DNA from: Bacillota bacterium
GTDB taxonomy: Bacteria > Bacillota_I > Bacilli_A > RF39 > UBA660
NCBI GenBank assembly: GCA_015059485.1
Contig: SVAH01000001.1
Coordinates: 66,724-130,723 of the forward strand
DNA: 64,000 nucleotides
Direction: 5' to 3'
Shown here: one piece after another, positions 1 to 42,426 of the stretch
Position numbering within the stretch: the stretch's first letter is position 1
Layout of the letters: each line of letters begins with the position of its first letter
Notes under the pieces: model-generated
Database searches by the model: none
The model's input: only the letters and a program-made list of their open reading frames with translations
What the model was told of the DNA's origin: nothing
Position numbers and translations under genes: made by a program

Positions 1-465
1 TTTACAAAAAGAAATAATATTTATATATTTGATGAAACAGAACCAGATAGATTTAGAAATCTTAATATTGATTTGATATATGTTAGTGGTGGTAATACTT
101 TTGCAACTTTGGATAAAATGAGAAAATGTGGTTTTGATAAAGATATAATTAGTTATATAAAAAATGGTGTAATATATATTGGAGGTTCTTGTGGTGCTCA
201 CATAGCAAGTAAAAATATCAAACACTTGGAAAAGTTAGATGACAATTATTTAAATATTAAAGATTATGATGCTTTAGGATTATTTGACGGAATAATAATA
301 CCTCACTATAATGAAGAAGAATATAATCCAAAGTTGAGAAAGCAAATATATGATAATTTATTAATTGAAAATAAATATAAAGTATATGCTCTAACAAATG
401 ATGATTCATTAGTTATTATTGATGATACAATTATTGAATATAAAGGAGGTAATACTCATGAATGA
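1..465 (+). CDS. Peptidase S51 (PepE-like, class I glutamine amidotransferase fold), 5'-truncated by the window edge; cargo of cassette 0
   Basis: Frame is open from base 1. Motifs IYVSGGNTF, YIGGSCGA (nucleophile Ser) and IIPHY are typical of the S51 family. Confidence 0.8.
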   Translation, partial: FTKRNNIYIFDETEPDRFRNLNIDLIYVSGGNTFATLDKMRKCGFDKDIISYIKNGVIYIGGSCGAHIASKNIKHLEKLDDNYLNIKDYDALGLFDGIIIPHYNEEEYNPKLRKQIYDNLLIENKYKVYALTNDDSLVIIDDTIIEYKGGNTHE

Positions 466-469
466 AAAT

Positions 470-500
470 AAAACAAATATAAACTGGTTGGTGTTGATTT
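470..500. repeat. Recombination junction J1 (att-like quasi-palindrome, central TG at 485-486)
   Basis: AAAACAAATATAAAC-TG-GTTGGTGTTGATTT; the left half encodes KTNINW, as in rbgA 42410-42427. Confidence 0.85.
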
Positions 501-655
501 AGTATAACTATTCATGAAACTCCTATAAAATAAGGGAAAACTAATATTTAATAATTACATATTTTAATAAATAATTACTAAAAAATATTAAAAATAACAA
601 AGTATTTAATACTTGGTGTTTACAGTCAAACTTTTAATAAAAAGAGGTGACAACA

Positions 656-1612
656 ATGAAAGAAATGTTAAAATTATTGAATAATTATTTAGTTATAATA
701 AATAGTTCTGTTGAAATATGGCTAGTTTTCAGTTCTTTAGATGAAGATGTATCTATAAAAGATTCTGATTTATTTGAATATTATTCTGATTTTAAACATA
801 TTGATTTGGAACATATTTCAACACATTTAATAAATGCGTGTTTACCCAGTGACAAAATTGAAAGGTTAATTAATGCTTTAAAAATTTTAAAAGAGACTTA
901 TATTAAATATGGTGTTAATAATCTAGATGAGTTATCTTCAAAAATATTAAATGAGTGGAATAATTCTAAGGATTATAGTGATGAATTAATTAAAGATATT
1001 TTATTAATAGAATGCCGCAGTGGATGGGATAAATTACCTAAATCTAATACGTCCTTATTAAAAATATACAAAGATATGGTTGATGGTGATATGATTGTTA
1101 ACCCTAATATTCCAGTTGGTACTTCATCTGAAAGATTATATACAATGTTACCTGATGATGCATCATGTTATAGATATAATTTAAAAGTTATATCTAATCC
1201 AATGATAGATTGGAGTATATATAGAAATGGTAGAAATCCTTTAGAACAGTATTGCGCATTATATAATAATAGTAAAAATGAAGAAGAAAGAAAATATTAT
1301 CATGATTTAATAATAACAGCTATTTTTAGTTCATGTAGTTTATTTAATAATAAATTTGCATGGCATACTAAAGCTCATAAAACTGAAGAGATGATTAATT
1401 ATTATTTATTAGTAGAAAAAAATGAAATAAATAGTAGGCATCATTCTTTAAATGATATTAGTTTTATTAGTGAAATACATGAATTATTATTAAATGATGA
1501 ATTGTTTAATCATCAATTAGAATTATATACTGAAAAGAATGATGATGCTGAAGAAGTAATTAAGGAATTAAAATTATCAAGAGAAAGTGTACAACATAAA
1601 GTGTATTTATAA
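656..1612 (+). CDS. Hypothetical protein (~318 aa), cargo of cassette 1
   Basis: ORF 647-1612; RBS AGAGGTGA favours ATG at 656; no recognisable motif. Confidence 0.75.
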   Translation: MKEMLKLLNNYLVIINSSVEIWLVFSSLDEDVSIKDSDLFEYYSDFKHIDLEHISTHLINACLPSDKIERLINALKILKETYIKYGVNNLDELSSKILNEWNNSKDYSDELIKDILLIECRSGWDKLPKSNTSLLKIYKDMVDGDMIVNPNIPVGTSSERLYTMLPDDASCYRYNLKVISNPMIDWSIYRNGRNPLEQYCALYNNSKNEEERKYYHDLIITAIFSSCSLFNNKFAWHTKAHKTEEMINYYLLVEKNEINSRHHSLNDISFISEIHELLLNDELFNHQLELYTEKNDDAEEVIKELKLSRESVQHKVYL

Positions 1613-1616
1613 GATT

Positions 1617-1779
1617 GCCATATGACCAGGTAACTCTTATGGTTAACTTGGTATTGGATTAGTCTAACTACGATAAATGACTTAAAAATGGACGAAATAG
1701 TAATAAATTTCGTCTTTTTTATGCTATAATTGAATAGAAATGGAGTGATTCCTATGGATAATAAAACTAATATTAACTG
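1617..1779 (+). repeat. Promoter-type right arm, copy 1 (near-identical to 3541-3702)
   Basis: Imperfect inverted repeat, terminator GACGAAAT..ATTTCGTC-T6, extended -10 TGCTATAAT, RBS GGAGTGA, ATG GAT AAT AAA ACT AAT ATT AAC TG. Confidence 0.85.
1691..1720 (+). terminator. Intrinsic terminator in the cassette right arm
   Basis: gacgaaat-agtaataa-atttcgtc followed by a T-run. Confidence 0.65.
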
Positions 1780-1793
1780 GTTGATATTGATTT
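1763..1793. repeat. Recombination junction J2 (central TG at 1778-1779)
   Basis: AAAACTAATATTAAC-TG-GTTGATATTGATTT (preceded by T). Confidence 0.85.
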
Positions 1794-2422
1794 AGTCTGA
1801 GTTTCATTCAAACTCCTATAAAATAAGAAAAAAACAAATATATGCTTGTTACATAATATAATAAGAATATAAAAAATAATGATAAAAATAACTGAAAAAG
1901 TATCAAAAGTAGCATAGTATTTGATACTTGGTATTGACGGTTAAACTATTAAAAACGAGGTGAATGATTATGATTTTAGATGGAGCAGATATAGGATTAG
2001 GTAAAGTAGTTATAACAGACTCACATGCAACAATTAATAATGTTGAAATACCAATAAAATGTGTAGATATATATAGTGAAGATCATATTTATCGTTTCAC
2101 ATTTTGGACTCAACAAGAATATGAAAAATATAATGATTTAGAATTGAATAAAAAAACTAATATTTTAGATCTTATAGATGACTACGATATTGATTTTGGT
2201 ACTAAAGAATATGGTACTATTAATTCAAGAGAAAATACTGAGATGTATTTTACTAGAATAGATACTGATAAATATATTTTAACTGCAGAGATTAAAAATT
2301 TTGAAAATTGTGTGCTTGGAAATATGAAAAATCATAAGAATTTAAAATTAGAAGCTATTATAGATTTTAATGATATAAAAGGAGTTGATCCAAATGAATG
2401 AAAATAAAACTAATATCAATTG
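1780..2422 (+). mobile_element. Single-gene cassette 2 (643 bp)
   Basis: Bounded by J2 and J3; conserved left arm; the ORF stop overlaps the rbgA-like start (ATGAATGA). Confidence 0.75.
1964..2401 (+). CDS. Hypothetical protein (~145 aa), cargo of cassette 2
   Basis: ORF with GAGGTGA RBS (start may be 1970); no family recognised. Confidence 0.75.
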   Translation: MIMILDGADIGLGKVVITDSHATINNVEIPIKCVDIYSEDHIYRFTFWTQQEYEKYNDLELNKKTNILDLIDDYDIDFGTKEYGTINSRENTEMYFTRIDTDKYILTAEIKNFENCVLGNMKNHKNLKLEAIIDFNDIKGVDPNE

Positions 2423-2436
2423 GTTGATATTGATTT
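2406..2436. repeat. Recombination junction J3 (central TG at 2421-2422)
   Basis: AAAACTAATATCAAT-TG-GTTGATATTGATTT. Confidence 0.85.
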
Positions 2437-2601
2437 AGTCTAGCCATTCATTAAACTCCTATAAAATAAGGAAAAATTAATATTTAGTAATTACATATTT
2501 TAATAAATAATTACTAAAAAGTATAAAGAATAGATAAAAAAACTCCAAAAATACCATAGTATTTGATACTTGGTATTGACGGTTAATCTAATATAAAAGA
2601 G

Positions 2602-3540
2602 GTGATTGTTTTGAATTTAATAGATACATTAAATACAAGTTATGAATATGTTTGTGATAACTCCAGAAATGTAAAAATAAATTATGATAAAATTGATGAT
2701 TTAATTGATCAGATTAATAACTCAAAGGTTGATTATTGGTTAGATTCAAATCCATATGGTTTAATGGATATGGATGTAGAAGAAATAATTAATTTCTTAT
2801 TCATATATCATGCAATAGGAGATTATTGCTTTTGGGGAGATCCTAAATGGGAAGTAAAAACAGATCTAGGTGTTATGGATGGGTCTTATGCAATAATGTA
2901 CTTAATACTAAATAGATTTAAATCAAATAATAATTTTGAAATTAGTTTTGATGAATTTAAAGAATTATTAAAAGGAAATGTAACAATTCCATTGTTAAAA
3001 GATAGATATCAAAATTTATTAGAAATGAATAGATTTCTTAAATCTAAAAATAAGTCATTCTATGAATTAATTAAAGAATTAAACATTGATAGTGAATTAT
3101 TTGAATTTATAGTTAATAATTTAGATTATTTTAAAGATATATCTAATTATGGAGGGAAAGAAATACTATTTTATAAAAGAGCTCAATTATTAACTTCTGA
3201 TATTCTACATGTTAGAGAGAAGAAAGAAAATATTGAAGTAGATTATTCTCATTTAATTGGTTGTGCTGATTATAAAATACCTCAAGTTATGAGATGCTAT
3301 GGTATGTTAGAATTCAGTGATAGTTTAGGAGATAAAGTTGATTCTAAAATAGAATTAAAAGAAGGTACTGAAGAAGAAATAGAAATAAGAGCAAATACTT
3401 TAAAAGTAATAAACTATATATATGAAAGATTAGATAAAAAATATTCTCGCATGGATATAAATGATTTTATATGGTTACTAGGTCAAAATAAATCACAAAT
3501 GACTAAATCATATCATAGAACATTAACAAAACATTATTAA
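2602..3540 (+). CDS. Queuosine salvage protein (QNG1/DUF2419-like queuosine-nucleotide N-glycosylase)
   Basis: Motifs YCFW, FYKRAQLLTSD, ADYKIPQVMR, EIEIRA, D.FIW and YHRT match the Q_salvage family; the true start may be TTG 2611. Confidence 0.8.
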   Translation: MIVLNLIDTLNTSYEYVCDNSRNVKINYDKIDDLIDQINNSKVDYWLDSNPYGLMDMDVEEIINFLFIYHAIGDYCFWGDPKWEVKTDLGVMDGSYAIMYLILNRFKSNNNFEISFDEFKELLKGNVTIPLLKDRYQNLLEMNRFLKSKNKSFYELIKELNIDSELFEFIVNNLDYFKDISNYGGKEILFYKRAQLLTSDILHVREKKENIEVDYSHLIGCADYKIPQVMRCYGMLEFSDSLGDKVDSKIELKEGTEEEIEIRANTLKVINYIYERLDKKYSRMDINDFIWLLGQNKSQMTKSYHRTLTKHY

Positions 3541-3702
3541 GCCATATGACCAGGTAACTATTATGGTTAACTTGGTATTGGTTTAATCAAACACGATAAA
3601 TGATATAAAAATGGCCGAAATTGTAATAAATTTCGTCTTTTTTATGCTATAATTGAATAGAAATGGAGTGATTCCTATGGATAATAAAACTAATATTAAC
3701 TG
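3541..3702 (+). repeat. Promoter-type right arm, copy 2
   Basis: Near-identical to 1617-1779. Confidence 0.85.
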
Positions 3703-5513: not shown

Positions 5514-8297
5514 ATGAAATCAAAATTATTTAAGTATGCTATGATGAGCATGCTTTTTATTTTGTCTATTTTTGGCATAACAGAAGTACATGCTGAACAA
5601 TACACTGGACAAGCAATCTGGCCTAGTGAATATATTAGTAATATCTATATTAAAAAAGATAGAAATGATGGTTATTCAAAATGGCAACAAGCAAGATTTA
5701 TTAGAAGAAGTGAAGATAATAAATTCGTTTATTGTTTACAACCATATACTGATATAGATAATAACTTACCTTATTATGATGTAATAAGAGAAGACTATGA
5801 AAGAGTATTAGGGTTTAGTGAAGCACAATGGGAAAGAATATCTTTACTAGCTTATTATGGATATCAATATGACCAAAATGGATATAATCATAATGATCAA
5901 AAATGGTATGCTATTACTCAAGTTATGATTTGGAGAACAACAAATCCTGAATCAAATATCTATTTTACTGATACTTTAAATGGTAATTATACATCTAAAT
6001 TTGATGGTGAAATAGCTGAACTTGAAAGCTTAGTTGCAAATCATTATAAAAGGCCACAATTACAAAGTGGAGTTGTTGTACCAATTGGAAGTACAACTGA
6101 AATGAATGATACTAACGGTGTATTAAGTAATTTTAAAATTACTTCTACAGATAAAGTATCAGCAACTATTAATGGAAATACTTTATCAGTAACTGCAAAT
6201 AGTATTGGTGAAGGATCTATTACTTTTGAAAAGAAAGCTACTAAGTATGAAATACCACCAATTGTTTATTTTAGTAATCATTCACAAAATGTATTTAGAG
6301 TTGGTAATTTTGACCCTGTATTAAGTAAATTTACTTTAAAGGTTATAGGTGGAAGAGTAACACCAACTAAAGTTGATGTTGAAACAAAAACAAATACTCC
6401 TCAAGGTGAAGCTAAATTAGGTGGAGCTGTATATGGTATTTATAAAGTTGATGGAACTAGAGTTGGGTCTGTAACTACTAAAGATGATGGAACAAATACA
6501 TCAGATTATTTACCTGAACTTGGTAGATTCTATTTATTAGAAGAACAACCATCAGAAGGTTATTTATTAGATAGTAATAAATACTATTTTGAAATAACAG
6601 AGAATAATTTAAATCCTACTGTGCAAGTATTTGAGCAAGTAATCAAATTAGATTTTGAATTTACTAAAGTGTATGCTAGTGCTGAAACTCAAATAATGGA
6701 ACCAGAAGTAGGTATTAAATTTGGAATTTATAATAATAAGAATGAACTTGTAAAAGAAATAACTACAGATTCACAAGGTGTATTTAGATTTACTTTACCA
6801 TATGGTACTTATACTGTTAAACAATTAACAACAACTAAAGGTCATGAAAAAATTGACGACTTTAATGTTGAAGTAAAAACTACAGGAGAAGTAGTTAAAA
6901 AAGTTATTTCAAATGCTCCAATTACTGCCAAGTTAAGAGTTGTTAAAATTGATTCTGAAACTAAGGAAGTAATAAAGAGAAGTAATATTAAATTTAAAAT
7001 ATTTGATGTTAAAAACAATGAATATGTATGTCAAACAATTACATATCCAACTAAAGAAACTATCTGTGTTTGGGAAACAGACGAAGATGGTGAATTTACA
7101 ACAGCTTATCCTTTAATGACTGGAACTTATAGACTTGAAGAAGTTGATCAAGTAATTGATGGCTATTTATGGAATAGTCAATCTCATGAATTTACAATTG
7201 ATGAAGATTCTAATTTAAGAACTGACTCAGAGTATGGAATAATATTCGATACTGATTTTGAAAACACTAGAGTAAAAGGTGAAATCAAAATTGAAAAAAC
7301 TGGAGAGGTTGCTGAACTTACTGAAAATGGATTTGAATTTAAAAATCAACCATTAGAAGGAGTTAAATTTGGTTTATATGCTAAAGAAGATATAGTATGG
7401 AATGGTAATACAATTTATACAAAAGATTCTTTAGTAACAGAAAAACTTACTGATAGTGAAGGTAAAATAGTATTTGATGAATTATATCTTGGTAAGTATT
7501 ATGTAAAAGAAATTGAAACATTAGATAATTATGTTTTAGATGAAAATACATATGAAGCTGAACTAGTATATAAAGATCAATATACACCAACTATCTTCTA
7601 TTCAGAAGCTTTATTAAATGTATTAAAAACTGGTAAACTAGAATTTACTAAAACTGATATGTCTGAATCTAAAACTCTTCCAAATACACTAATCGAAATT
7701 TATACAGAAAATGATGAACTAGTATTTAGTGGAAGAACTGATGAAGAAGGTAAAATTGTTATTGAAAGACTTCCTCAAGGAAAGTATTATATTATTGAAA
7801 AGGAAGCACCAGAAGGATACAAACTTAATGAAGAAAAAATGCCATTTGAAATTAAAGAAAATGGTGAAGTAATTAAATCAACTATGAAAGATGAAGACAT
7901 AACTGGAACACTTGAATTTACAAAATTAGATTTTTCAAATGATAATCCACTTTCAAACACTTTAATTGAAATATATAATGCTGATACAGATGAATTAGTA
8001 TTCTCTGGAAGAACTGATGATAATGGAACAATTACTATAGAAAAATTAAAATATGGTAAATATTACATTTTAGAGAAAGAAGCACCAGAAGGATATGAAT
8101 TAAATCCTGAAAGAATGTATTTTGAAATCAAAGAAGATGGAGAAATTGTTAAATCTGTAATGAAAGATAAACAAATAGTTAAAGTACCTAATACTGAAGA
8201 AAATGATTATAAAGAATTATTATTTAGTGGAATTACTTTACTAGTTTGTGGAGCAGGTGTAATTATTTATGGAATCAAAAATAAAAAGAAAAAATAA
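5514..8297 (+). CDS. Cell-wall-anchored adhesin with Cys-Gln thioester (TED) domain and SpaA/Cna-B-type repeats
   Basis: Signal peptide; VYCLQP and YAITQVMIW (TQxxIW) motifs; repeated EKEAPEGY modules; VPNTE sorting motif followed by TM and basic tail. Confidence 0.8.
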   Translation: MKSKLFKYAMMSMLFILSIFGITEVHAEQYTGQAIWPSEYISNIYIKKDRNDGYSKWQQARFIRRSEDNKFVYCLQPYTDIDNNLPYYDVIREDYERVLGFSEAQWERISLLAYYGYQYDQNGYNHNDQKWYAITQVMIWRTTNPESNIYFTDTLNGNYTSKFDGEIAELESLVANHYKRPQLQSGVVVPIGSTTEMNDTNGVLSNFKITSTDKVSATINGNTLSVTANSIGEGSITFEKKATKYEIPPIVYFSNHSQNVFRVGNFDPVLSKFTLKVIGGRVTPTKVDVETKTNTPQGEAKLGGAVYGIYKVDGTRVGSVTTKDDGTNTSDYLPELGRFYLLEEQPSEGYLLDSNKYYFEITENNLNPTVQVFEQVIKLDFEFTKVYASAETQIMEPEVGIKFGIYNNKNELVKEITTDSQGVFRFTLPYGTYTVKQLTTTKGHEKIDDFNVEVKTTGEVVKKVISNAPITAKLRVVKIDSETKEVIKRSNIKFKIFDVKNNEYVCQTITYPTKETICVWETDEDGEFTTAYPLMTGTYRLEEVDQVIDGYLWNSQSHEFTIDEDSNLRTDSEYGIIFDTDFENTRVKGEIKIEKTGEVAELTENGFEFKNQPLEGVKFGLYAKEDIVWNGNTIYTKDSLVTEKLTDSEGKIVFDELYLGKYYVKEIETLDNYVLDENTYEAELVYKDQYTPTIFYSEALLNVLKTGKLEFTKTDMSESKTLPNTLIEIYTENDELVFSGRTDEEGKIVIERLPQGKYYIIEKEAPEGYKLNEEKMPFEIKENGEVIKSTMKDEDITGTLEFTKLDFSNDNPLSNTLIEIYNADTDELVFSGRTDDNGTITIEKLKYGKYYILEKEAPEGYELNPERMYFEIKEDGEIVKSVMKDKQIVKVPNTEENDYKELLFSGITLLVCGAGVIIYGIKNKKKK

Positions 8298-8880
8298 GAG
8301 CTGGTTAATTATAATCGGCTCTTTAATCTTTCTTAGTGGTGTTGGATTAATAACATATGATTATTTATCTAATAGCAAGGTAGATAAAAAAGAAACTGAA
8401 TTGTTAGAAGAATTCTATGAAATAGAAGAGGAAATTGAATCTATAGAAGAACCTCAAGTAGTAGAAGAAGTAAAAGAACAAATTAAAGTTAATTATATTG
8501 CTGTACTTAAAATTCCTAAAATTGGTTTAGAAAGAGGTTTAGTAGATCCAAATAATTATCTTAATAATGTTAATTATAATTTAGAATGGTTAGATGGCTC
8601 ATCTATGCCAGATGAAATAAATGGTAATGTAATAATTGCTGGTCACTCTGGTAGTGCAAGAATATCTTATTTTAGAAAATTGGATAGATTAGAAATAGGT
8701 GATGAAGCTTCTATCATCTATAATGGTAAAACCTATAATTATAAAGTAGTAGATATTTATGATGTTGAAAAAACTGGTAAAGCAGAAATAGTTAAAGAAA
8801 AAAATACTACAACTTTAACATTAATTACATGTAGGCATAATACTAATAGACAGATAGTTGTCATATTTAAACAATTCTAA
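8269..8880 (+). CDS. Sortase
   Basis: N-terminal TM, IIAGHS, TLITC..R catalytic motifs. Confidence 0.9.
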   Translation: MESKIKRKNKSWLIIIGSLIFLSGVGLITYDYLSNSKVDKKETELLEEFYEIEEEIESIEEPQVVEEVKEQIKVNYIAVLKIPKIGLERGLVDPNNYLNNVNYNLEWLDGSSMPDEINGNVIIAGHSGSARISYFRKLDRLEIGDEASIIYNGKTYNYKVVDIYDVEKTGKAEIVKEKNTTTLTLITCRHNTNRQIVVIFKQF

Positions 8881-27391: not shown

Positions 27392-27474
27392 TAATCATCT
27401 TTTTAAATGGAAATCGTGTGTAAATTGACAATTTTATGGTATAATTGTATTTGAGATATTTAGGTGGTGAAAAG

Positions 27475-30225
27475 ATGGGTACATATGAGAGTGAATCTAA
27501 ATTAGAAGATAGAATGATAGACCAATTAAGAAAACAAGGATATCAATATATTGAAATAAATGATGTAACCGAATTAGAAAGAAATTTTAGGGAACAAGTA
27601 AACCTACATAATAGAGCAGAATTAAAGTTTAAAGACTTATCTGATAAAGAATTTGAAAGACTAATGGTAAAAATATCTGGTAAAGGTGTTTTTCAGTCTG
27701 CAAAAGAATTAAGACAAAAGCAAGATATACAAAGAGATGATGGTTCAATTGTTTATATTGAATTGTTTAATACAAAAGATTGGTGTAGAAATAACTTTCA
27801 AGTAACTCATCAAACTACTGTTGAAGGTAAATATACTAATAGATACGATGTAACTATTTTAATTAATGGACTTCCTCTTGTTCAAATTGAATTAAAACGA
27901 AGAGGAATAGATATGAAAGAAGCTTTTAATCAAATTAAAAGATATAAAAGACATTCATATTTTGGATTATATAAATTTATTCAATTATTCGTTATAAGTA
28001 ATGGTGTAGATACAAAGTATTTTGCTAATGGAGATCAAGAACTTAATTATGGATTTACATTCTATTGGACTGATGTAGATAACAATAGAATAACTAATCT
28101 AGAACAATTCTGTGTATTCTTCTTAGATAGATGTCATATTGGTAAAATGATAGCTAGATACATGATTATAAATGAAACTGAAAAAATGTTAATGGTTATG
28201 AGACCATATCAAGTATATGCTGTAGAAAATATTGTATCTCGTGCTTTAGATACAAATAATAATGGTTATGTATGGCATACAACAGGTTCAGGTAAAACTA
28301 TAACTTCATTTAAAACAAGCCAAATTTTATCTTTAGAGCCATCTATTAATCAGGTATTTTTCTTAGTTGATAGAAAAGACTTAGACAAACAAACCTTAGA
28401 TGAATTTAATAAATTCGATCCAGGTTGTGTTGATATGACAAATCAAACTGATAAATTAATACAACAAATTAAAGATAGTACAAAACCATTAATAATTACT
28501 ACAATTCAAAAAATGGCTAATGCATGTTCAAATCCTAAATATGCGAGTGTTATGGAAAAATATAAAGATTTAAAAACTATCTTTATAATTGATGAATGTC
28601 ATAGATCTCAATTTGGGGATATGCATAGACAAATATCTAAAACATTTAGTAAAGCTCAATATTTTGGATTTACTGGTACTCCAAGATTTAAAGAAAATCC
28701 ATCACAAGATGGTAGAAGTACAGCAGATATTTTTGAAAAATGTTTACATACATATTTAATTAAAGATGCTATTAAAGATGAGAATGTTTTAGGATTCTCA
28801 GTTGATTATATGAAGTTTGTTGAATTCAACGGACAAACAGAAGAAGATTTAATGGTAGAAGGAATAGATACTGATGAAGTATTTATGGCTGATGATAGAG
28901 TAAGACTTATTGCACAAGATATTATTGATCATCATAATGTTAAAACTAGAGATAGAAAATATAATGCTTTATTTACTGTTTCATCAATACCTTTATTAAT
29001 TAAGTATTATGATATGTTTAAATCATTAAATCATGATTTAAAGATTGGTGCTATATTTACTTATGGTGCTAATGAAGATTTAGATAAGAATCCAGAACAT
29101 TCAAGAGAAGCACTTGATAGATGTATGAAAGATTATAACAAGATGTTCAAAACTAATTTTAGTACTCATACATTTGATTCTTATTTTAGAGATATATGTA
29201 AGAGAATTAAAAATACTGAAATTGATATTGTTATAGTAGTTAATATGTTATTGACAGGATTTGATGCTAAGAGATTAAATACTTTATATGTAGATAAACC
29301 ATTAAAGTATCATGATCTTATTCAAGCATTCTCAAGAACTAATAGAGTAGAATCTGATACTAAACCATTTGGTAATATAGTATGTTATAGAACTACTAAA
29401 GCTAGAGTAGATGAAGCTGTTAAATTATTCTCACAAACAAATAGTGTAGATACAGTTATTATGGCTCCATATGAAACATACTTAGAAAAATTCAATAATG
29501 CAGTAAATAAATTATTAGAAATTACTCCAGTAGTTGAAAGTGTAGATTCACTTGAAAGTGAAGATGATATAAAAGAATTTATAGTCGCATTTAGAGAAGT
29601 AGCTAAAATATTAGTTAGTTTAAAAACATTTAATCAATTTGATTTAGATAATACTGATTCAATGATTAATACTCAAATGTTTGAAGATTATAAATCTAAG
29701 TATTATGAATTATATAGAAAACTATCAAATGATAAAGAAAAGAGTTCTATTTTGAATGATGTAACATTCTCGCTAGAACTAATACAAACTGATAAAATTA
29801 ATGTTTCTTATATTTTAAATTTAATTAGAAATGTTGATTTATCTAATGAAGAACAAAAACAAAAAGATATAGCTGATATTCAAAGTAAATTAGTTAATAT
29901 TACAGATGATGAATTATTCTTAAAAGCTGAATTAATTAAGAGTTTCTTATCTTCAATTTTACCAGCATTAAAAGAAGAAGATTCAATAGATGAAGCTTTC
30001 GATAAGCATATGAATAAAGAAAGACAAAAAGAAATTGAAAAATTTGCTACTGAAAATAATATTAACTTAGAAACACTTGAAACAATAATAAACGAATTTG
30101 AATATAGTGGTATTTTCCCAGATGGATTAATAGGACAATCTATTGAAGCTCCATTCTTGAAGAAAATATCAATTATTGAGAATATTAAAGGATTCGTTAA
30201 GAATCTATTAAAGAAATATATGTAG
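27475..30225 (+). CDS. hsdR: Type I restriction endonuclease subunit R
   Basis: DVTILINGLPLVQIELK, HTTGSGKT, DECHR, FTGTP, MLLTGFD and QAFSRTNR motifs. Confidence 0.95.
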   Translation: MGTYESESKLEDRMIDQLRKQGYQYIEINDVTELERNFREQVNLHNRAELKFKDLSDKEFERLMVKISGKGVFQSAKELRQKQDIQRDDGSIVYIELFNTKDWCRNNFQVTHQTTVEGKYTNRYDVTILINGLPLVQIELKRRGIDMKEAFNQIKRYKRHSYFGLYKFIQLFVISNGVDTKYFANGDQELNYGFTFYWTDVDNNRITNLEQFCVFFLDRCHIGKMIARYMIINETEKMLMVMRPYQVYAVENIVSRALDTNNNGYVWHTTGSGKTITSFKTSQILSLEPSINQVFFLVDRKDLDKQTLDEFNKFDPGCVDMTNQTDKLIQQIKDSTKPLIITTIQKMANACSNPKYASVMEKYKDLKTIFIIDECHRSQFGDMHRQISKTFSKAQYFGFTGTPRFKENPSQDGRSTADIFEKCLHTYLIKDAIKDENVLGFSVDYMKFVEFNGQTEEDLMVEGIDTDEVFMADDRVRLIAQDIIDHHNVKTRDRKYNALFTVSSIPLLIKYYDMFKSLNHDLKIGAIFTYGANEDLDKNPEHSREALDRCMKDYNKMFKTNFSTHTFDSYFRDICKRIKNTEIDIVIVVNMLLTGFDAKRLNTLYVDKPLKYHDLIQAFSRTNRVESDTKPFGNIVCYRTTKARVDEAVKLFSQTNSVDTVIMAPYETYLEKFNNAVNKLLEITPVVESVDSLESEDDIKEFIVAFREVAKILVSLKTFNQFDLDNTDSMINTQMFEDYKSKYYELYRKLSNDKEKSSILNDVTFSLELIQTDKINVSYILNLIRNVDLSNEEQKQKDIADIQSKLVNITDDELFLKAELIKSFLSSILPALKEEDSIDEAFDKHMNKERQKEIEKFATENNINLETLETIINEFEYSGIFPDGLIGQSIEAPFLKKISIIENIKGFVKNLLKKYM

Positions 30226-30236
30226 GAGGTTAAAAT

Positions 30237-31799
30237 ATGTCTAGAGAAGAAAAACAACAATCACAACAAGCAGAACTTCAAAAACAATTATGGAGTATTG
30301 CTAATACCCTAAGGGGTAATATGGATGCGAATGATTTTAAAAACTATATTCTTGGATTAATCTTCTACAGATATTTATCTGAAAATCTAGTTAATTATGT
30401 TAATTCAACATATTTAAAAGATGATGAAATAGATTATGAAGAAGCTTGGAATAAAGAAGAATATAGAGAAGCATTAAAATCACAATTAATTAATGATTCA
30501 AATATGGGATATTTCTTAGAAGCTGATTATTTATGGAGTACATTAATTAAGAAAATTAAGACTGGTAAATTTGATATTTCAATGTTAGCTAAAGCAGTTA
30601 ATACAATATCTGAATCAACTTTAGGAAATGAATCTGAAGATGATTTTGAAAATCTATTTGAAGATATGGATTTAAATAACTCTAAATTAGGTAGAGGAGA
30701 AGCTGAAAGAACTAAATTAATATCTACTATTATGCTTAAGATAGATGATATTGATTTCCATCATGAAGATGCTGAAATTGATGTATTAGGTGATGCATAT
30801 GAATATTTGATTTCAAATTTCGCTGCATCAGCTGGTAAAAAAGCAGGAGAGTTCTATACTCCACAACAAGTATCAAGAATACTTGCTAAATTAGTAACTT
30901 TAAATAAATCAAAATTACAAAGTGTTTATGATCCAACTTGTGGATCTGGTTCATTACTATTAAGAGTAGGTAAAGAAACTAAAGTTACATCATATTATGG
31001 TCAAGAGTTCAATTCAACTACTTACAACTTAGCTCGAATGAATATGTTATTACATGGTATTTCATTTAAACATTTTGATATTAAAAATGATGATACACTT
31101 GAAAGACCAAGACATATTGATATGAAGTTTGATGCCATCGTTGCAAATCCTCCATATTCAGCTCAATGGAGTGCAGATCCTAAATTTATTGAAGATGAGA
31201 GATTTAGTGCCTATGGTAAGTTGGCTCCTAAATCAAAAGCTGATTTTGCATTTATTCAACATATGATTTATCAATTATCTGATAATGGAACTATGGCTGT
31301 AGTTTTACCACATGGAGTTCTATTTAGAGGTGCTTCTGAAGGAACTATAAGAGAATACTTAATTAAAGAAAAGAATTATTTAGATGCTGTAATTGGATTA
31401 CCAGCAAATATATTCTATGGAACAAGTATTCCAACTTGTATTCTTGTATTTAAAAAATGTAGAGAAAATGAAGAAAATATTTTATTTATAGATGCATCTA
31501 AAGATTTTGAAGCTGGAAAGAATCAAAACAGATTAAGAGATGAAGATGTAGATAAGATTATAGAAACATACAAAAATAGAGTAGAAGTAGAAAAATATTG
31601 TCATGTTGCTCCTATGTCAGAAGTAGCAGAAAATGATTATAATCTTAATATTCCTAGATATGTAGATACATTTGAAGAGGAAGAAGAAATTGATATTAAA
31701 GCTGTACAACAAGATTTAAAACAAATTGATAAAGAAATAGCAGAAGTAGATAAAGAATTAAATGTATATCTAAAAGAATTAGGATTAGATGAAATATAA
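30237..31799 (+). CDS. hsdM: Type I R-M methyltransferase subunit M
   Basis: GEFYTP, YDPTCGSGSLL, ANPPY and YNLNIPRY motifs. Confidence 0.95.
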   Translation: MSREEKQQSQQAELQKQLWSIANTLRGNMDANDFKNYILGLIFYRYLSENLVNYVNSTYLKDDEIDYEEAWNKEEYREALKSQLINDSNMGYFLEADYLWSTLIKKIKTGKFDISMLAKAVNTISESTLGNESEDDFENLFEDMDLNNSKLGRGEAERTKLISTIMLKIDDIDFHHEDAEIDVLGDAYEYLISNFAASAGKKAGEFYTPQQVSRILAKLVTLNKSKLQSVYDPTCGSGSLLLRVGKETKVTSYYGQEFNSTTYNLARMNMLLHGISFKHFDIKNDDTLERPRHIDMKFDAIVANPPYSAQWSADPKFIEDERFSAYGKLAPKSKADFAFIQHMIYQLSDNGTMAVVLPHGVLFRGASEGTIREYLIKEKNYLDAVIGLPANIFYGTSIPTCILVFKKCRENEENILFIDASKDFEAGKNQNRLRDEDVDKIIETYKNRVEVEKYCHVAPMSEVAENDYNLNIPRYVDTFEEEEEIDIKAVQQDLKQIDKEIAEVDKELNVYLKELGLDEI

Positions 31800-31810
31800 T
31801 ATAAAAAGGA

Positions 31811-32404
31811 CTATACAAACATATCTTGCATAAGTCCTTTTTTTAGTTCTGATAATTTATCTAATTTTTGTGTTTCGCATAATATTTTTTTATCAATTAA
31901 TTCAATATTATTTACAATTTTATTTTGAATATCTAAAGATGGAAGTTTTATGTTAAATTTTAAGAAATCTTCAGGTGAAACAGCCATTCTTTCATATACT
32001 GTTCCTTGTTCATATTTTCTAACTGCATTAATGAAATTATTTCTTGTTGTATAGTATTTTATGTATTTTGGATTAACTGTTGTATTTATTTCAAATGTTA
32101 CATATATTGGTGAGAATATTGCAGATCCATACTCATTTAGACAAATAACTCCAAATTTTAAATTTGCTGGATTATAACATAAATCATTTAACTTTGTGAT
32201 TTTGTATTGTTTGTCTTCAGATTTTACTAAAAAATCTCTATTATATCTTTCACCTTTATCATATATACCATCTTTAGATAAAGTTACATGAGGGTATTCT
32301 AATCCTTTTTCTGAATATAACTTTCTTTCCTTTAATATTTTTTTAAGACTAATTTCTGGATAATCTTCTCTAAATACATCTTCCAAAAGTCCTTTTTTAA
32401 ATAA
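31811..32404 (-). pseudogene. hsdS: Silent hsdS half-gene (C-terminal TRD donor)
   Basis: One TRD ending KKGLMQDMFV; starts at a 15-bp repeat matching 35306-35320; no RBS. Confidence 0.8.
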
Positions 32405-32422
32405 AGAAGATACTAAAAAGGA

Positions 32423-33589
32423 CTATACAAACATATCTTGCATAAGTCCTTTTTTTAACTCACTTAATTTACTATATTTACTTTCTTCTAATGAAATCTT
32501 GCTATCAATAAGTGATAAAATTCTACCTATTTTATTTTGTTCATTCATATTTGGTACACTTATTGTTATTTCACCAAATAAATCCATATTAAGATTTCTT
32601 CTTACTATACTTGCACCTTGCTCTGAGGAAATCATATATTCATATAATGCTCTTGGTGATTTAATCCAATTTTTAAAATAATCGATGTTAACGATATCTG
32701 TTTTAATATCAAATATTTTATAAGATGGAGAAACAATACCAATTTCGTATTTGTTATTAATATTTATATTCCCCATCCATAGATTTTGTGGACTTAATAC
32801 TAATTGATTTCTCTTTAATATTTTGTATCCTATATTATTTTCACTGGCAGCTTGTTTATTAAAATATTCGCTTTGCAAAAATATACCTTTGGCAGTAGAT
32901 GATAATATTTCATATTGATTATTAACTGTTGTTTTTTCATTACATTCCATTAAAATGTCTTTAAGGGGTATTTTTTTATACGAATCATCATTTTTAATTT
33001 GATTTATTTGACTTAACTTAAATAACTTAAGGTCTTCAATTTTCTTAGATTGTAATTCTATTTTTTTATCTATAAGTGATAGAAAATTGGAGATCTTATT
33101 TTCCTCATCTATGTTAGTTATTGAAAACTTATAACTTCCATATTCTTGAGAATTTATACCAGGTTGTCCAGATCTCATGGACATAATCCTTATCCAATTA
33201 TTATATTTATTTAATTTAGTTTGTTGAAAAATAAAATTTGAATTATGATTTATAATACTTGCTTTAATTAAGAATCCAGCATAATAAAGCTTTCCATCAT
33301 TTGAATTATATAAATAAGTTTTTCCTGTACTTGCACCTGTTCTCGCAAATAATATATCATTTTCTTTAACTAAAAATTTATCTTCTAAGATTCCATCTGG
33401 TGATACCACATCTTTATTTGAATACCTATTTGAATTTTCATCTATATCAGTTATTCTAATATATTTATTTTCTCCATCATATTCTTTGGAAGCAGAATTC
33501 ATTCCATATGCTATTTCAGATGTAATATTTTTCAACTCAGTTTCTTCCCATTCGTTGTTAAAATTTTTGAATCTCAATTTAGGTTTCAT
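32423..33589 (-). CDS. hsdS: Type I R-M specificity subunit S (allele A)
   Basis: MKPKLRF start, two TRDs, conserved central and C-terminal repeats. Confidence 0.9.
   Translation of the reverse strand: MKPKLRFKNFNNEWEETELKNITSEIAYGMNSASKEYDGENKYIRITDIDENSNRYSNKDVVSPDGILEDKFLVKENDILFARTGASTGKTYLYNSNDGKLYYAGFLIKASIINHNSNFIFQQTKLNKYNNWIRIMSMRSGQPGINSQEYGSYKFSITNIDEENKISNFLSLIDKKIELQSKKIEDLKLFKLSQINQIKNDDSYKKIPLKDILMECNEKTTVNNQYEILSSTAKGIFLQSEYFNKQAASENNIGYKILKRNQLVLSPQNLWMGNININNKYEIGIVSPSYKIFDIKTDIVNIDYFKNWIKSPRALYEYMISSEQGASIVRRNLNMDLFGEITISVPNMNEQNKIGRILSLIDSKISLEESKYSKLSELKKGLMQDMFV
33018..33091. repeat. 74-bp inverted repeat (partner 35240-35313), between TRDs
   Basis: Perfect reverse complement by eye. 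Confidence 0.9.
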
Positions 33590-33619
33590 TATCTCACCAC
33601 CAGTCCTTAAGTTTAATAA
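33585..33619. repeat. 35-bp inverted repeat (partner 34703-34737) spanning the hsdS RBS and start codon
   Basis: TTATTAAACTTAAGGACTGGTGGTGAGATAATGAA present in both orientations. Confidence 0.9.
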
Positions 33620-33688
33620 AAAGTTACTAACTTAACTAATAATAATTATATCACACTTTTATCGATTTTGAACATTATAAAAAGTATT

Positions 33689-34654
33689 TCAAATACTTTC
33701 TTGAAATACTTTGCATATCATATCAATACATTTTTTCTTTTGAGATAATCTAGGATGTACATATAGGTTTAATGTTATATTAACATTAGCATGACCTAAT
33801 AACTCACTTACAGTCTTATAATCCACACCTAAAGAGATACAATTTGTGGCAAATGTGTGTCTTAATGAATGAAAATTAAATTGTTTTATTTTGACTTGTT
33901 TTAATACTTTGTTAAAGTATTTTCTATATGTTCTTGGTTCAAGATATTTACTTGAACCAGTAATTATATAATCGTCACCTTTAGTTTTAAGTTTTTTTAA
34001 TAATTCTAAAAATTCTTTGTTAATAGGTATTTCTCTATTAGCATTTTTTGTTTTTGGAGTTGTTATTATCACTTTAGAAACATTATTATCTTTATCTTTA
34101 ATATAAACTCTTTGGATTGTTTTATTTACAGATAATATATTCTTTTTGAAGTCTATATCATTCCATTGTAATGCACATAATTCACCAATTCTAAGACCTG
34201 AATATAAGGATATTAATAATCCTATATTTCTATTAGTTAAGTTTTCTAAAACATAATTTGTAAGTTTGTTTTGTTCATGTTTTGATAGGATATATATTTT
34301 TGAATCTTTATTATCTTTTGGATAATTAAAAGTCAATTCAAAATGTCTTATTTTTTCTTCATTTATTGCTTTTCTCAAACTTCCTTTAATAATGATTGTT
34401 ATATCCTTAATTGTTTTTTCAGATAATCCACCAGATCCATCTTTTCTTCCATTTTTAAATAGATTTAAAAGAAAATCTTGAATAGTTTTATGATTTAAAT
34501 CTTGAATATAGATATTTCCTAGATTAGGAATTATATGATTGAAAATATTATTTGAATAATTAGCATATGTTGATTCTTTTATATATTCTTTCTTATCAAT
34601 CAACCATTCATAAATCCAATCACTATATAAAATCTTATTTTTTTTAGCAAACAT
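33689..34654 (-). CDS. Tyrosine recombinase (hsdS invertase)
   Basis: SGLRIGE, PKT, HSLRHTFAT and LLGHANVNITLNLY motifs. Confidence 0.92.
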   Translation of the reverse strand: MFAKKNKILYSDWIYEWLIDKKEYIKESTYANYSNNIFNHIIPNLGNIYIQDLNHKTIQDFLLNLFKNGRKDGSGGLSEKTIKDITIIIKGSLRKAINEEKIRHFELTFNYPKDNKDSKIYILSKHEQNKLTNYVLENLTNRNIGLLISLYSGLRIGELCALQWNDIDFKKNILSVNKTIQRVYIKDKDNNVSKVIITTPKTKNANREIPINKEFLELLKKLKTKGDDYIITGSSKYLEPRTYRKYFNKVLKQVKIKQFNFHSLRHTFATNCISLGVDYKTVSELLGHANVNITLNLYVHPRLSQKKKCIDMICKVFQESI

Positions 34655-34732
34655 ATAATATTCCTCCTTTCCAAAGAAATATTATAGTTGTTCATTATCT
34701 CATTATTAAACTTAAGGACTGGTGGTGAGATA

Positions 34733-35878
34733 ATGAATGTTCCCAAAATAAGATTTAGCGAATTTACTTCTGAATATAAAAAATATAAATTTAAAGATGT
34801 AGCTACATTGTATAGAGGAAGTTCACCAAGACCAATTATTAATTTTATAACTAAGTCTGATGATGGAGTTAATTGGATAAAGATTGGTGATGTTAATGAA
34901 AATGATACATATATAAATAAAACAAGTGAAAAAATCACAGTTGAAGGTTCAAAAAAATCTAGAAAAGTTTATAAGAACGATATTATTTTATCTAACTCAA
35001 TGAGTTTTGGAAGACCGTATATTTTAAATATTGATGGATGTATTCATGATGGTTGGTTCGTAGTTAGAGATTATAATGAAAAATTAGTTCAAAAATATTT
35101 ATATCATTTTATGTCTTCTCCAGTTATTCAAAAACAATATAAAAAATTATCTGCTGGTGGAGTTGTAAGTAATATAAGTAGTGATTTAGTTTATAGCGTT
35201 GATATAAATATTCCTTCAAAAGAAGAACAAATTAAGGTTTCCAATTTTCTATCACTTATAGATAAAAAAATAGAATTACAATCTAAGAAAATTGAAGACC
35301 TTAAGTTATTTAAAAAAGGATTAATTCATCAAATGAAGAAGAATAGTAATAACTGGTCTGAATATAAAATATCTGAAATATTTAAAATTACTAGAGGAGT
35401 AGTAATTCCTAAAACTGACTTATTAGATAATAAAACTACAAAATATCAATATCCAGTTTATTCATCTCAAACATCTAATAATGGAATTCTAGGTTATGAT
35501 ACAAAGTATGATTTTGATGGAAAATATTTAACGTGGACTACAGATGGAGCTAATGCTGGGAAAGTGTTTTATCGTAATGGAAAATTTAGATGTACTAATG
35601 TTTGTGGTGTTTTGTACAATGATAATAACAAATATGTTGATGAGTTAACAGCTGAACTCTTAAACTATGAAACACCAAAACATGTGTCTTATGTAGGTAA
35701 CCCTAAATTAATGAATAATGTTATGGGAGATATTAAAATTTTTCTACCTGATAGTAATGAATCTCATAGGGTAAGTAATATATTATTAGTAATAAATAAT
35801 AAAGTTTTATTAGAAACTGATAAGTTAAATAAATTAAATAAACTAAAAAAAGGACTTATGCAAAATATGTTTGTATAG
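34733..35878 (+). CDS. hsdS: Type I R-M specificity subunit S (allele B)
   Basis: MNVPKIRF start with GGTGGTGA RBS; two TRDs; ends KKGLMQNMFV. Confidence 0.9.
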   Translation: MNVPKIRFSEFTSEYKKYKFKDVATLYRGSSPRPIINFITKSDDGVNWIKIGDVNENDTYINKTSEKITVEGSKKSRKVYKNDIILSNSMSFGRPYILNIDGCIHDGWFVVRDYNEKLVQKYLYHFMSSPVIQKQYKKLSAGGVVSNISSDLVYSVDINIPSKEEQIKVSNFLSLIDKKIELQSKKIEDLKLFKKGLIHQMKKNSNNWSEYKISEIFKITRGVVIPKTDLLDNKTTKYQYPVYSSQTSNNGILGYDTKYDFDGKYLTWTTDGANAGKVFYRNGKFRCTNVCGVLYNDNNKYVDELTAELLNYETPKHVSYVGNPKLMNNVMGDIKIFLPDSNESHRVSNILLVINNKVLLETDKLNKLNKLKKGLMQNMFV

Positions 35879-39083: not shown

Positions 39084-40784
39084 ATGGCTGGTAGAGGTAA
39101 GAAAAAACTTAGTACAAATTCTACTGTTGCTAATTGGCTAGTAGGTATTTATACAAGAAGATCTTTTGATGATAATGAAGATAAAGAATCTAATACTATT
39201 ACAAATCAAAAAGAAATGATTAATAGTTTTATATCAAAAGAAAAGAATATGACAATAGTCGATTATTATGTTGACGATGGATATACTGGTACTACATTTG
39301 ATAGACCAGGATTTCAAGAGATGATGAAAGATATATCTGATGGAAGAATTAATACTATTATAGTAAAAGATTTATCTAGATTAGGAAGAAATAGTCTAGA
39401 AGTAGGTAAATATATTGAAGAGATATTTCCTATATATAATATAAGGATAATAGCTATTAATGATAATGTGGATTCGTTTAAAAGGCCAGAATCTATAAAT
39501 GATTTAATGGTTCCAATTAAAAATTTAATAAATGAAAGTTATGCCAGAGACATATCTAAAAAAGTTTCTTCTGCTTATTATACGATGGCTAGCAATGGTA
39601 AGTATGTAGCTGGTACTTCTCCTTATGGTTATACATTTGATGAGAATGATAAACATCATCTTGTAGTTGATCCAGATGAAGTTGAAATTGTTAGATTAAT
39701 ATTTAATATGGCATTAAAAGGTGATGGCAGAGTTAAGATAACAAAATATCTAAATGATCATAATATTTTATGTAGAAAAGAAATACAGCGAAGAAAAAAG
39801 TATAAATTATCATTAGAACCATTAGAAGAAACAATTAAGTATAAATGGTCAACTTCTACAATAGGAAGAATGTTAACAAGTGAAATATATATAGGTAATT
39901 TAACTCAATTGAAAACGAAAAGAGAAAGTTTTAAAAATCATAAAGTAATAAATGTAGCAAAAGAGGATTGGGTAAGATTTGAAAAAACACATGAACCTAT
40001 TATAACAAAAGCTGATTTTGATAAAATACAAGGCTTAATTAAAGTAAATGCTAAAAGATTATCAAATACTGGAGAAAGAACATATTCAATATATAATGGT
40101 GTTTTAAAATGTGCTGATTGTGGTAGAGCAATGTATAAACAAGAAGACAAAAGAGGAAATCGCCAGCTATCAAATTATTTCTGTAATACATATTTATATA
40201 TAAGCAAAACTTCTTGTAGCTCACACAAGATAAAAACGGATGATTTAAATGATATTGTTTTAGAATCCGTGCAATTACAAGTAAAGTTAGTAATTGAATT
40301 AGATAGAAGTTTAAAAAGACTGTTTTTTAAAAATAATAGAGAAACAGTTGAAAGCGAATATAAAAACAATACTAGAATAGCAGAAATAAAGATAAATAAT
40401 TTAAAGAATAAAAAAATTCAATTATATGAAGATTGGAAATTCAATAATATAGATAAAGATGAATTTATAAATCAATCTAAACTTATTGAAGAAGACATTA
40501 AATTAGTTGAAGAAAAGCTAGAATTAATAACTAAAACATATAGGGATAATATAAAAATGATTAAAAGAAATGATTATTGGATAAATCATTATAGAAGAAA
40601 TAAAAAAATAAAAAAACTAACTAGAGAAGTTATAAAAGAATTAATTGATGTTATTTATATAACTGCTGATGGTAATGTAGATATTCGTTTCAAGTATAGC
40701 AATGAATATAAAGAGTTAGTAACATACTTAGAGAATGAAGGAGCTGTTAAGAAATGTCAAAATGGAGAGTTGGTATTTACTTAA
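39084..40784 (+). CDS. Large serine recombinase 1
   Basis: YTRRS (catalytic Ser), DDGYTGTTFDRP, KDLSRLGR, recombinase domain, Zn ribbon CADC, coiled coil. Confidence 0.93.
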   Translation: MAGRGKKKLSTNSTVANWLVGIYTRRSFDDNEDKESNTITNQKEMINSFISKEKNMTIVDYYVDDGYTGTTFDRPGFQEMMKDISDGRINTIIVKDLSRLGRNSLEVGKYIEEIFPIYNIRIIAINDNVDSFKRPESINDLMVPIKNLINESYARDISKKVSSAYYTMASNGKYVAGTSPYGYTFDENDKHHLVVDPDEVEIVRLIFNMALKGDGRVKITKYLNDHNILCRKEIQRRKKYKLSLEPLEETIKYKWSTSTIGRMLTSEIYIGNLTQLKTKRESFKNHKVINVAKEDWVRFEKTHEPIITKADFDKIQGLIKVNAKRLSNTGERTYSIYNGVLKCADCGRAMYKQEDKRGNRQLSNYFCNTYLYISKTSCSSHKIKTDDLNDIVLESVQLQVKLVIELDRSLKRLFFKNNRETVESEYKNNTRIAEIKINNLKNKKIQLYEDWKFNNIDKDEFINQSKLIEEDIKLVEEKLELITKTYRDNIKMIKRNDYWINHYRRNKKIKKLTREVIKELIDVIYITADGNVDIRFKYSNEYKELVTYLENEGAVKKCQNGELVFT

Positions 40785-42328: not shown

Positions 42329-42426
42329 TGGTATAATTGATTAGTAAAGTTACTTACAAAAAAGGGAGTGATTTCTATGAGTAATACAAACGAAAATCAA
42401 AGTGTTGCTAAAACCAATATCAACTG
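42329..42426 (+). promoter_or_regulatory. ICE right end supplying the rbgA promoter, RBS and N-terminus; attR at TG 42425-42426
   Basis: TGGTATAATTGA, GGAGTGATTTCT-ATG..AAAACCAATATCAAC-TG; parallels the cassette right arm (TGCTATAATTGA..GGAGTGATTCCT-ATG). Confidence 0.8.

Follow-up and report, generated by a model that had tools for sequence, protein, structure and literature searches.

A composite of host-type and element-type half-sites at the seam between cargo genes and rbgA promoter modules in gene cassettes of uncultured Bacilli

Our analysis of a 64,000-nucleotide stretch from a Bacillota bacterium (hereafter the window; GCA_015059485.1, contig SVAH01000001.1, in our own numbering G000:C4:66724-130723) concerns a short minus-strand sequence at 3538-3584 which, inside a one-gene mobile cassette, mimics the target that rbgA, an essential gene, offers such cassettes in its 5' codons. 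We find that this mimic is a composite of one host-type and one element-type half-site in a conserved geometry that is about 10 bp wider than that of a genuine site and lacks a conserved core, and that it sits at the seam between the cargo gene and a module which supplies rbgA with terminator, promoter and start codon. That it acts at the DNA level as a pseudo-attachment site, attL-like but not itself a crossover point, on which large serine recombinases (LSRs) would dock, is a reading to which we give an even chance. We class the feature as an LSR attachment-site derivative within a cassette system that resembles both the staphylococcal cassette chromosome (SCC) and integrons.

The setting is a stack of 17 one-gene cassettes with 18 junctions (C4:56009-70425; window 1-3702 is its right part), which lies upstream of a conjugative element (integrative and conjugative element, ICE) at the 5' codons of rbgA. 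Each junction is made of a P arm, i.e. a short copy of the rbgA start (ribosome-binding site (RBS), ATG and codons ...K-T-N-I-N), followed by TG and by an element-side arm, P', of the form GTTGATnnnnATTTAnnnAAC; since the P arm copies the rbgA 5' end, the target is regenerated at every insertion. While 14 of the 17 cassettes have their cargo translationally coupled to the rbgA start copy at their end, three (c13, c15, c17) carry a tail of 162-191 nt instead, with the mimic, a terminator, a TGnTATAAT box, RBS, ATG and P arm.

A two-part minus-strand match to the rbgA target had been claimed for 3538-3584 in the original prediction, and a mechanical search of the whole window with the two halves of that target (spacers of 0-30 allowed, both strands) found it again: 12/14 matches to AAACCAATATCAAC, a 12-nt spacer and 16/21 matches to GTATCCAGGCCATATGGCTAA. 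The only other place that answered was the rbgA target itself (42411-42447, spacer 2), and none of 300 dinucleotide-preserving shuffles held a two-part match under the same settings. On the plus strand 3538-3592 reads TAA GCCATATGACCAGGTAAC TATTATGGTTAA CTTGGTATTGGTTTAATCAAAC. This comprises the cargo stop codon (3538-3540), a first half-site that we call beta (3541-3558, minus strand; GCCATATGACCAGG plus TAAC), a 12-nt spacer (3559-3570; TATTATGGTTAA) that lacks a conserved TG core, and a second half-site, pi2 (3571-3592, plus strand; CTTGGTATTGGTTTAATCAAAC), beyond which comes a terminator hairpin with a U-run. Beta is the reverse complement of the rbgA codons (Y)PGHMA, so the cassette does hold an inverted copy of the host-side (B'-type) half, and both this and the placement between cargo stop and terminator agree with what had been predicted. 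Pi2 is an element-side (P'-type) half in direct orientation, and the AAACCAATACCAAG of the earlier description is its reverse complement. As CCATATGG within the host-side half is a palindrome, some of the 16/21 matches are independent of orientation; the inverted reading is settled by homologues that extend the match to ...CCTGGATAC(CA), two of them (L105, L197) reading ...CCTGGATAC and a third (L088) holding a longer inverted rbgA copy around a 2-nt CA core, GTCATATGTCCTGGATAC-CA-ATTGATGTTAC.

This genome holds three copies of the mimic, namely at 3538-3584, at 1617-1660 and, just upstream of the window, at G000:C4:66187; beyond them the 18-nt core GCCATATGACCAGGTAAC has no further occurrence at up to three mismatches in the 1.4-Mb assembly. 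The copy at 1617-1660 had been foreseen too, yet it is the weaker one (11/14 and 15/21 by manual count), which puts it below the thresholds of the two-half search; the pseudo-site as a whole spans 1617-1668, with beta at 1617-1634, spacer at 1635-1646 and pi2 at 1647-1668.

Conservation was profiled in species-representative genomes using a pattern of promoter box and rbgA 5' codons only, the mimic being left out against circularity. The scan returned at least 140 stretches, 80 of which were fetched with 400-nt flanks, all of them from gut or rumen metagenome-assembled genomes (MAGs) labelled Bacilli, Erysipelotrichaceae, Clostridia or Tenericutes; kinship among the modules was left uncorrected. 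A match to GCCATATGACCAGG with no more than five mismatches, the threshold by which the beta set is defined, stands 101-104 nt before the TATGNTATAAT box in 41 of the 79 modules whose upstream flank is long enough (40 distinct sequences, drawn from 80 of at least 140 stretches). These modules belong to many unrelated cassettes, a recurrence on which the original prediction had staked itself. In most of the remaining loci the cargo stop lies less than 60 nt from the promoter, which leaves no room for the site. What is conserved at this fixed module position is the motif GCCATATGNCCWGG, which is rbgA codons P-G-H-M-A in reverse complement; counted over the 40 distinct modules, its bases are G34 C31 C38 A39 T39 A39 T40 G36 A21 C38 C38 A20 G28 G31, the exact reverse complement of CCW GGN CAT ATG GC, and the two softest positions (A in 21/40 and in 20/40) fall on the third bases of the Gly and Pro codons, at which a set of 91 rbgA sites varies as well.

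The roughly 13 nt that follow beta are hypervariable between modules (mean information 0.52 bit per position vs 1.39 for beta). A weight matrix derived from 75 distinct genuine P' arms then finds its best match 16-18 nt after CCWGG in 38 of the 40 modules, and 27/40 score above the 95th percentile of shuffles. Since a true attL would have an offset of 7 (ATAC, core and G), the separation of the halves exceeds that in the real target by 9-11 bp, roughly one helical turn, in keeping with the extra turn proposed from the window copy, and the bases before pi2 show no conserved TG. In 4/12 array cassettes pi2 resembles the P' arm at the cassette's own left end more closely than it does nearly all others (20/20, 18/20, 18/20 and 13/20 identities, equalled by no more than 2 of 61 other arms), and this identity ends exactly where the 21-nt half-site ends. 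Ahead of beta, many modules share the conserved block AAGATTAAGATATTACGATTT, a part of which, ATTACGATTT, is P' arm-like. A decayed P arm as source of the spacer was considered and dropped, the consensus spacer matching the P arm at about 9/17 positions (manual count), no better than AT-rich DNA gives.

Other scans were narrower in yield. BLAST of the whole module against 61 relatives matched outside the window's own genome only with the terminator-promoter part (90% in G020, 71% in G034); the mimic part found no match among them beyond its own genome, yet G034 has GGCCATATGACCAGGG at the equivalent place. A metagenome scan with pi1 and beta (ATTACGATTTGCCATATGNCCWGG) gave six stretches, too few for statistics, with one locus (L204) that proved useful, and a strict gapped pattern run over 401 genomes of the window's own family matched five, one of them rbgA itself; that pattern, which fitted only one of the three copies in the window's genome, is too narrow for estimating prevalence.

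The mimic forms the upstream edge of a portable 3' module of about 165 bp that restores rbgA. On the plus strand it is followed by the intrinsic terminator (hairpin and T-run at 3613-3643, identified by RNA fold), which ends the cargo transcript, by an extended -10 promoter (TGcTATAAT, 3645-3653) that re-drives rbgA and whose box recurs 5' of rbgA at the ICE right end and in 80 homologous loci, and by RBS, ATG (3677) and a copy of the initial rbgA codons (P arm, 3686-3700) that stops at the TG crossover (3701-3702), this last part occupying 3665-3702 with the ICE left end next. The second module continues likewise on the plus strand (1690-1779), with a terminator called by scan at 1690-1715, -10 box at 1725-1730, ATG at 1754, P arm at 1763-1777 and TG at 1778-1779. 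The cargo gene ahead of the first mimic (2602-3540, plus strand) belongs to the queuosine-salvage family (Pfam Q_salvage, 1.3e-36), and a Pfam search found no family for the one ahead of the second copy (647-1612, plus strand). From mimic to TG core the distance is 140-157 bp and falls into two clusters, 140-144 (20 modules) and 151-157 (26 modules). Helical phasing of the mimic to the crossover was entertained on these grounds, but the step of about 12 bp merely tracks two lengths of the start region and so is no proof of phasing.

As to where the module comes from, we considered both that it is a native rbgA leader and that it started as a fixed mini-element. A native origin is favoured by the metagenome locus L204, where the module lies in a chromosome, flanked by an hsp20 terminator and rbgA, with rplS and lepB further upstream, and by the four arrays whose left edge is visible, their leftmost unit being a module of this type (with a decayed beta in the window's genome); against it, unoccupied rbgA loci in other genera (e.g. 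G009 with lepB-rbgA, G005, G036) have terminator and promoter but no beta. L204 itself has one promoter module and zero cassettes, and at L204:3660-3700 the rbgA crossover codon TGG (Trp) is replaced by TAT (Tyr), with the TG core gone; this target may perhaps be immune to further insertion. Another locus, L093, has two beta-pi units in tandem, AACCATATGACTAG...TTGGTATTGGATTAGTC followed by a decayed second unit.

Beta may mark the boundary of a mobile unit: DNA to its right is family-specific and DNA to its left cargo-specific, while a pair of empty and filled loci was not found. Two loci bear on the nature of this seam. In L080 a mini-cassette consists of promoter parts only (P' arm, terminator, promoter, start, P arm), with an ordinary junction as its left bound, and L197 has the beta-pi site between two cargo open reading frames (ORFs) with no promoter module. 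Together they suggest that the seam is junction-like, and both look like products of exchange at the beta-pi place. An additional cassette docking site 5' of the promoter, of which L197 and L080 could be products, was considered but not adopted, the core not being TG.

What speaks for an attL-like pseudo-attachment site is the make-up of the two halves, beta being the reverse complement of B' and pi2 scoring as P', as in the attL of an LSR. In the LSR model for A118/LI, phiC31 and Bxb1 (Rutherford et al. 2013, PMC3783163), attL and attR are the sites that combine a B-type with a P-type half, and the subunits bound to them lock each other via coiled-coil motifs into an auto-inhibited complex. 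The mimic shares with these sites the pairing of one host-type with one element-type half and the attL orientation, and the LSRs encoded nearby are TnpX- or SprA-like. It differs in that its halves, rather than directly flanking a shared 2-bp dinucleotide as at an LSR crossover site, lie at the wider offset without conserved TG, and in that it is found inside the element rather than at its end, with the host-type half inverted relative to the host gene. Of the three functions first suggested for the mimic, an accessory recombinase-binding site is the one we favour, given a P'-type half-site at fixed offset in 38/40 modules; an essential role for such a site is excluded by its absence from the ICE and by the tally of 15 beta-pi sites against 62 junctions over seven arrays.

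The resolvases of Tn3 and gamma-delta have accessory sites of this general kind: res subsites II and III are of dimer type, have a half-site spacing unlike that of the crossover site and bind recombinase without being cut. Those subsites, however, serve small resolvases, lie directly beside site I and are obligatory, whereas the mimic is 140-157 bp away from the crossover, is optional (the ICE and about three quarters of units do without it) and belongs with LSR enzymes.

Several points weigh against recombinase docking. The ICE that encodes both LSRs has no such site at its right end, and only about a quarter of cassette units have one, so the site is dispensable for recombination; decay and deletion variants exist, too. 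In 8/12 array cassettes pi2 is no closer to its own P' arm than to other arms. Within one closely related module family, 3/14 sites vary in beta vs about 5/38 in the flank (manual count), so that the contrast across families between a conserved beta and a variable spacer may reflect mosaicism rather than selection, and since the beta set was picked by a mismatch threshold its apparent conservation is inflated. The docking reading gives no account of how an inverted host half came to lie inside a cassette, and recombinase binding at beta-pi is purely what we infer. Finally, LSRs are described in PMC3783163 as needing no auxiliary DNA sequences.

If the mimic is nonetheless a docking site, it most probably acts as follows. 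Recombinase subunits would dock on both beta and pi2, and the widened centre would block assembly of a dimer able to cut; the joint between cargo and promoter module would thereby be recombinationally inert, so that both travel as one unit, and recombinase would be held 140-157 bp from the true crossover site of the cassette. In its boldest form this scenario sees serine-recombinase 'integron' cassettes with a built-in cis-regulatory attL mimic which, by one extra helical turn, traps subunits in an auto-inhibited complex, locks cargo to promoter module and tunes integration and excision some 150 bp away, a proposal we put forward tentatively and think rather unlikely as a whole. To judge from its sequence, the mimic looks like a fused (fossil) junction beside an inverted copy of the rbgA target.

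Such an origin need not have left a function behind. An old rearrangement may have placed an inverted fragment of the rbgA target beside a cassette junction, where it is carried along with the useful terminator-promoter module, functionless today. Since the ICE and about 3/4 of units do without the site, since decay and deletion variants exist and since within one family beta varies as much as its flanks (again by manual count), this functionless scar is the main rival, although on balance we doubt it. Decay can be seen at several stages: the array-start module of the window's genome reads CTATATGACAAATC, L108 and L103 are degraded, in L064 and L096 precisely the beta-to-pi2 segment is missing from an otherwise identical module, and in L069 pi2 has been lost. 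What a scar explains poorly is the fixed position, the 12 near-invariant core positions among modules whose spacer and pi2 are otherwise unalignable, the offset of +10 bp kept in 38/40 modules and the tracking by pi2 of its own P' arm in 4/12 cassettes, which needs an ongoing process or selection.

The mimic might instead work as RNA. Beta, present in the 3' untranslated region (UTR) of the cargo or in read-through transcripts, would pair in cis or trans with rbgA codons P-G-H-M-A and either damp translation or trigger cleavage of read-through mRNA. Antisense or guide RNA had been among the functions first suggested, and in favour of it beta always comes after the cargo stop and before the terminator, and is complementary over 14 nt to an invariant rbgA stretch. 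In the window's genome, moreover, three G-U pairs make the plus strand fold much better than the minus, and the imperfect hairpin noted earlier is real (plus-strand RNA -19.8 kcal/mol, z -4.7; minus strand -8.9, z -0.4); in all three copies the plus strand gives a good fold (-19.8, -16.4 and about -21 kcal/mol) and the minus strand a poor one. This hairpin stems, however, from a local inverted repeat, CCAGGTAAC / GTTAACTTGG, and is lineage-specific rather than a family trait: 40 homologous segments have mean z of -0.21 (plus) and -0.26 (minus), none falls below -2 on the plus strand, and the plus strand is the more stable one in only 15/40.

Other evidence weakens an antisense role further. 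The covariation between mimic and rbgA alleles that had been suggested as a check is absent, two synonymous positions in 20 modules abutting rbgA giving 15/40 matches vs 15.8 by permutation (P = 0.69) at an 18-nt identity of 10-17. Nor is pi2 generally complementary to the rbgA 5' arm of its own module (mean 8.3/14 vs 7.5/14 for the reversed control); the 12/14 of the original prediction has its source in a near-palindromic attP, to which the ICE-supplied arm and this P' family both belong as arms. In addition, the presumed target is some 35-50 nt into the ORF, the majority of copies do not adjoin rbgA, and searches of the array and three homologous loci against Rfam at permissive E-values gave no match. 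In the assembled contigs of one RNA run (X21), a contig covers 1675-1781 and none covers 3538-3600, which speaks neither for nor against a stable RNA. To our minds, pairing with rbgA is improbable, even if the position between cargo stop and terminator would suit it.

We think still less of an invertible promoter switch, in which beta and the true B' would act as inverted repeats around terminator, promoter and start next to rbgA, with a recombinase flipping the segment between them. Inverted B'-type halves 140-157 bp apart do flank a promoter, and the CA core of L088 is polarised as inversion against a TG site would require. The flip would, however, strip an essential gene of promoter, RBS and start codon, cores mismatch in most copies, and in assembled contigs, where minority orientations are invisible, 0/40 distinct modules have rbgA coding sequence continuing upstream of beta, only one orientation being seen; we hold the switch to be very improbable. 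An attC-like single-stranded folded substrate or structural RNA hairpin, to which the good plus-strand folds of the three copies had pointed, is the least credible option of all and is largely refuted by the fold test over 40 homologues, apart from which a Pfam search found no integron integrase in the window, its sole tyrosine recombinase being part of a type I restriction-modification shufflon, and serine recombinases act on double-stranded sites (PMC3783163).

The cassettes as such are an SCC-like LSR stack, with recombinase-less tandem units at one essential-gene site, a target regenerated with each unit and paired LSR genes near. SCC and SCCmec islands, which CcrA/CcrB insert at rlmH, are alike in having two paralogous LSR genes, the end of an essential gene as target, a reading frame restored by each element and tandem stacks of elements without recombinase. 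We know of no internal attL-like pseudo-site in SCC, though we made no specific search for one. The present system differs in its units, which are single genes and integron-like, and in its target, the 5' end of rbgA, which obliges each unit to supply RBS and start codon and often a promoter, too. CcrAB are reported in PMC3783163 to be relaxed in how they pair sites (attP x attP). The 5' end of rbgA is also where streptococcal ICEs integrate, preserving the N-terminus and in some cases replacing the promoter (Ambroset et al. 2016, PMC4701971). These, however, use tyrosine integrases, and the portions of that study concerned with rbgA describe neither cassette stacks nor internal target mimics. 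Listings from a literature search on serine-recombinase cassette arrays held no report of such arrays at rbgA. With integron attC the mimic has in common that it lies 3'-terminally in arrayed one-gene cassettes and, in the window's genome, is an imperfect inverted repeat; attC, by contrast, has a conserved single-strand hairpin and is recognised by the tyrosine integrase IntI, whereas no homologue of the mimic (0/40, plus strand) folds better than shuffles, crossover takes place at the P-TG-P' junctions instead, and the enzyme class is another one.

If the mimic is indeed bound by recombinase as an attL-like pseudo-site, it would be the first accessory DNA site described for LSRs, which are held to need none and are prized as genome-engineering tools for the very reason that short attP and attB sites are thought sufficient; a conserved site of this kind with expanded centre would then be a new control element and a handle for tuning directionality. 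Our findings in any case sharpen the picture of an integron-like system by which uncultured Bacilli of gut and rumen capture genes at the 5' end of an essential gene. Two grades of cassette keep rbgA alive there, one by translational coupling and the other by a complete, insulated promoter module whose seam the mimic marks. Even if it is only a scar, it is a useful marker of how cassettes and promoter modules fuse.

The ICE that follows the stack runs over about 38.7 kb from 3703 to the TG core at 42425-42426, ahead of rbgA (ATG at 42377), and its right junction is the real rbgA target, i.e. the attR of the ICE (42411-42447, plus strand; P arm, TG core and host-side B' half). It encodes ParB, type IV secretion, a MobL relaxase, a coupling protein, type I restriction with a tyrosine-recombinase shufflon and, at its right end, the two tandem paralogous LSRs (39084-40784 and 40754-42322, plus strand; Pfam Resolvase, Recombinase and Zn_ribbon_recom), which are 38% identical to each other and have TnpX and SPbeta SprA as best solved relatives. 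The restriction genes at 27445-35878 comprise hsdR, hsdM, two opposed hsdS genes with the tyrosine recombinase between them and an hsdS fragment, which is the layout of a specificity-shuffling (phase-variable) system. At 5514-8880 a surface protein of 927 residues, with a thioester domain, six SpaA-type repeats and an adjoining sortase, is likely an adhesin or pilin for mating-pair contact. At 3698 one contig from DNA run X1 departs from the window sequence, exactly at the TG crossover before the ICE, into different DNA, which suggests that some cells or strains in the sample have another unit, or no ICE, at that junction.

Arrays similar to this stack occur in five other genomes (G061-G065). 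Many MAG contigs end within about 1.5 kb upstream of rbgA, which fits the presence of repeats at the locus. Contigs assembled from four sequencing runs were fragmented when compared with the window, and their joints mirror the repeated modules. Junctions without mimic (P arm and TG, plus strand) are found in the window at 470-486 and 2406-2422. Cassettes with long 5' leaders (window 2540-2600 and 1900-1960; L197, L195) have a second P'-like motif just before the cargo RBS, TTGGTATTGACGGTTAA in the window and TTGATTACGACAAAGTAACC in L197; as short-leader cassettes use the same motif as their P' arm, the long leaders look like a fused upstream mini-unit. At L199:174-760 a cargo resembling class II aminoacyl-tRNA synthetases has a leader of about 550 nt with a promoter box of its own. 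Cargo ahead of the mimic is varied and includes, besides queuosine salvage, a CAAX protease, a TIR-domain protein, a Ham1-like NTPase, an adenylosuccinate-synthetase-like gene and a peptidase S51 that recurs in two genomes.

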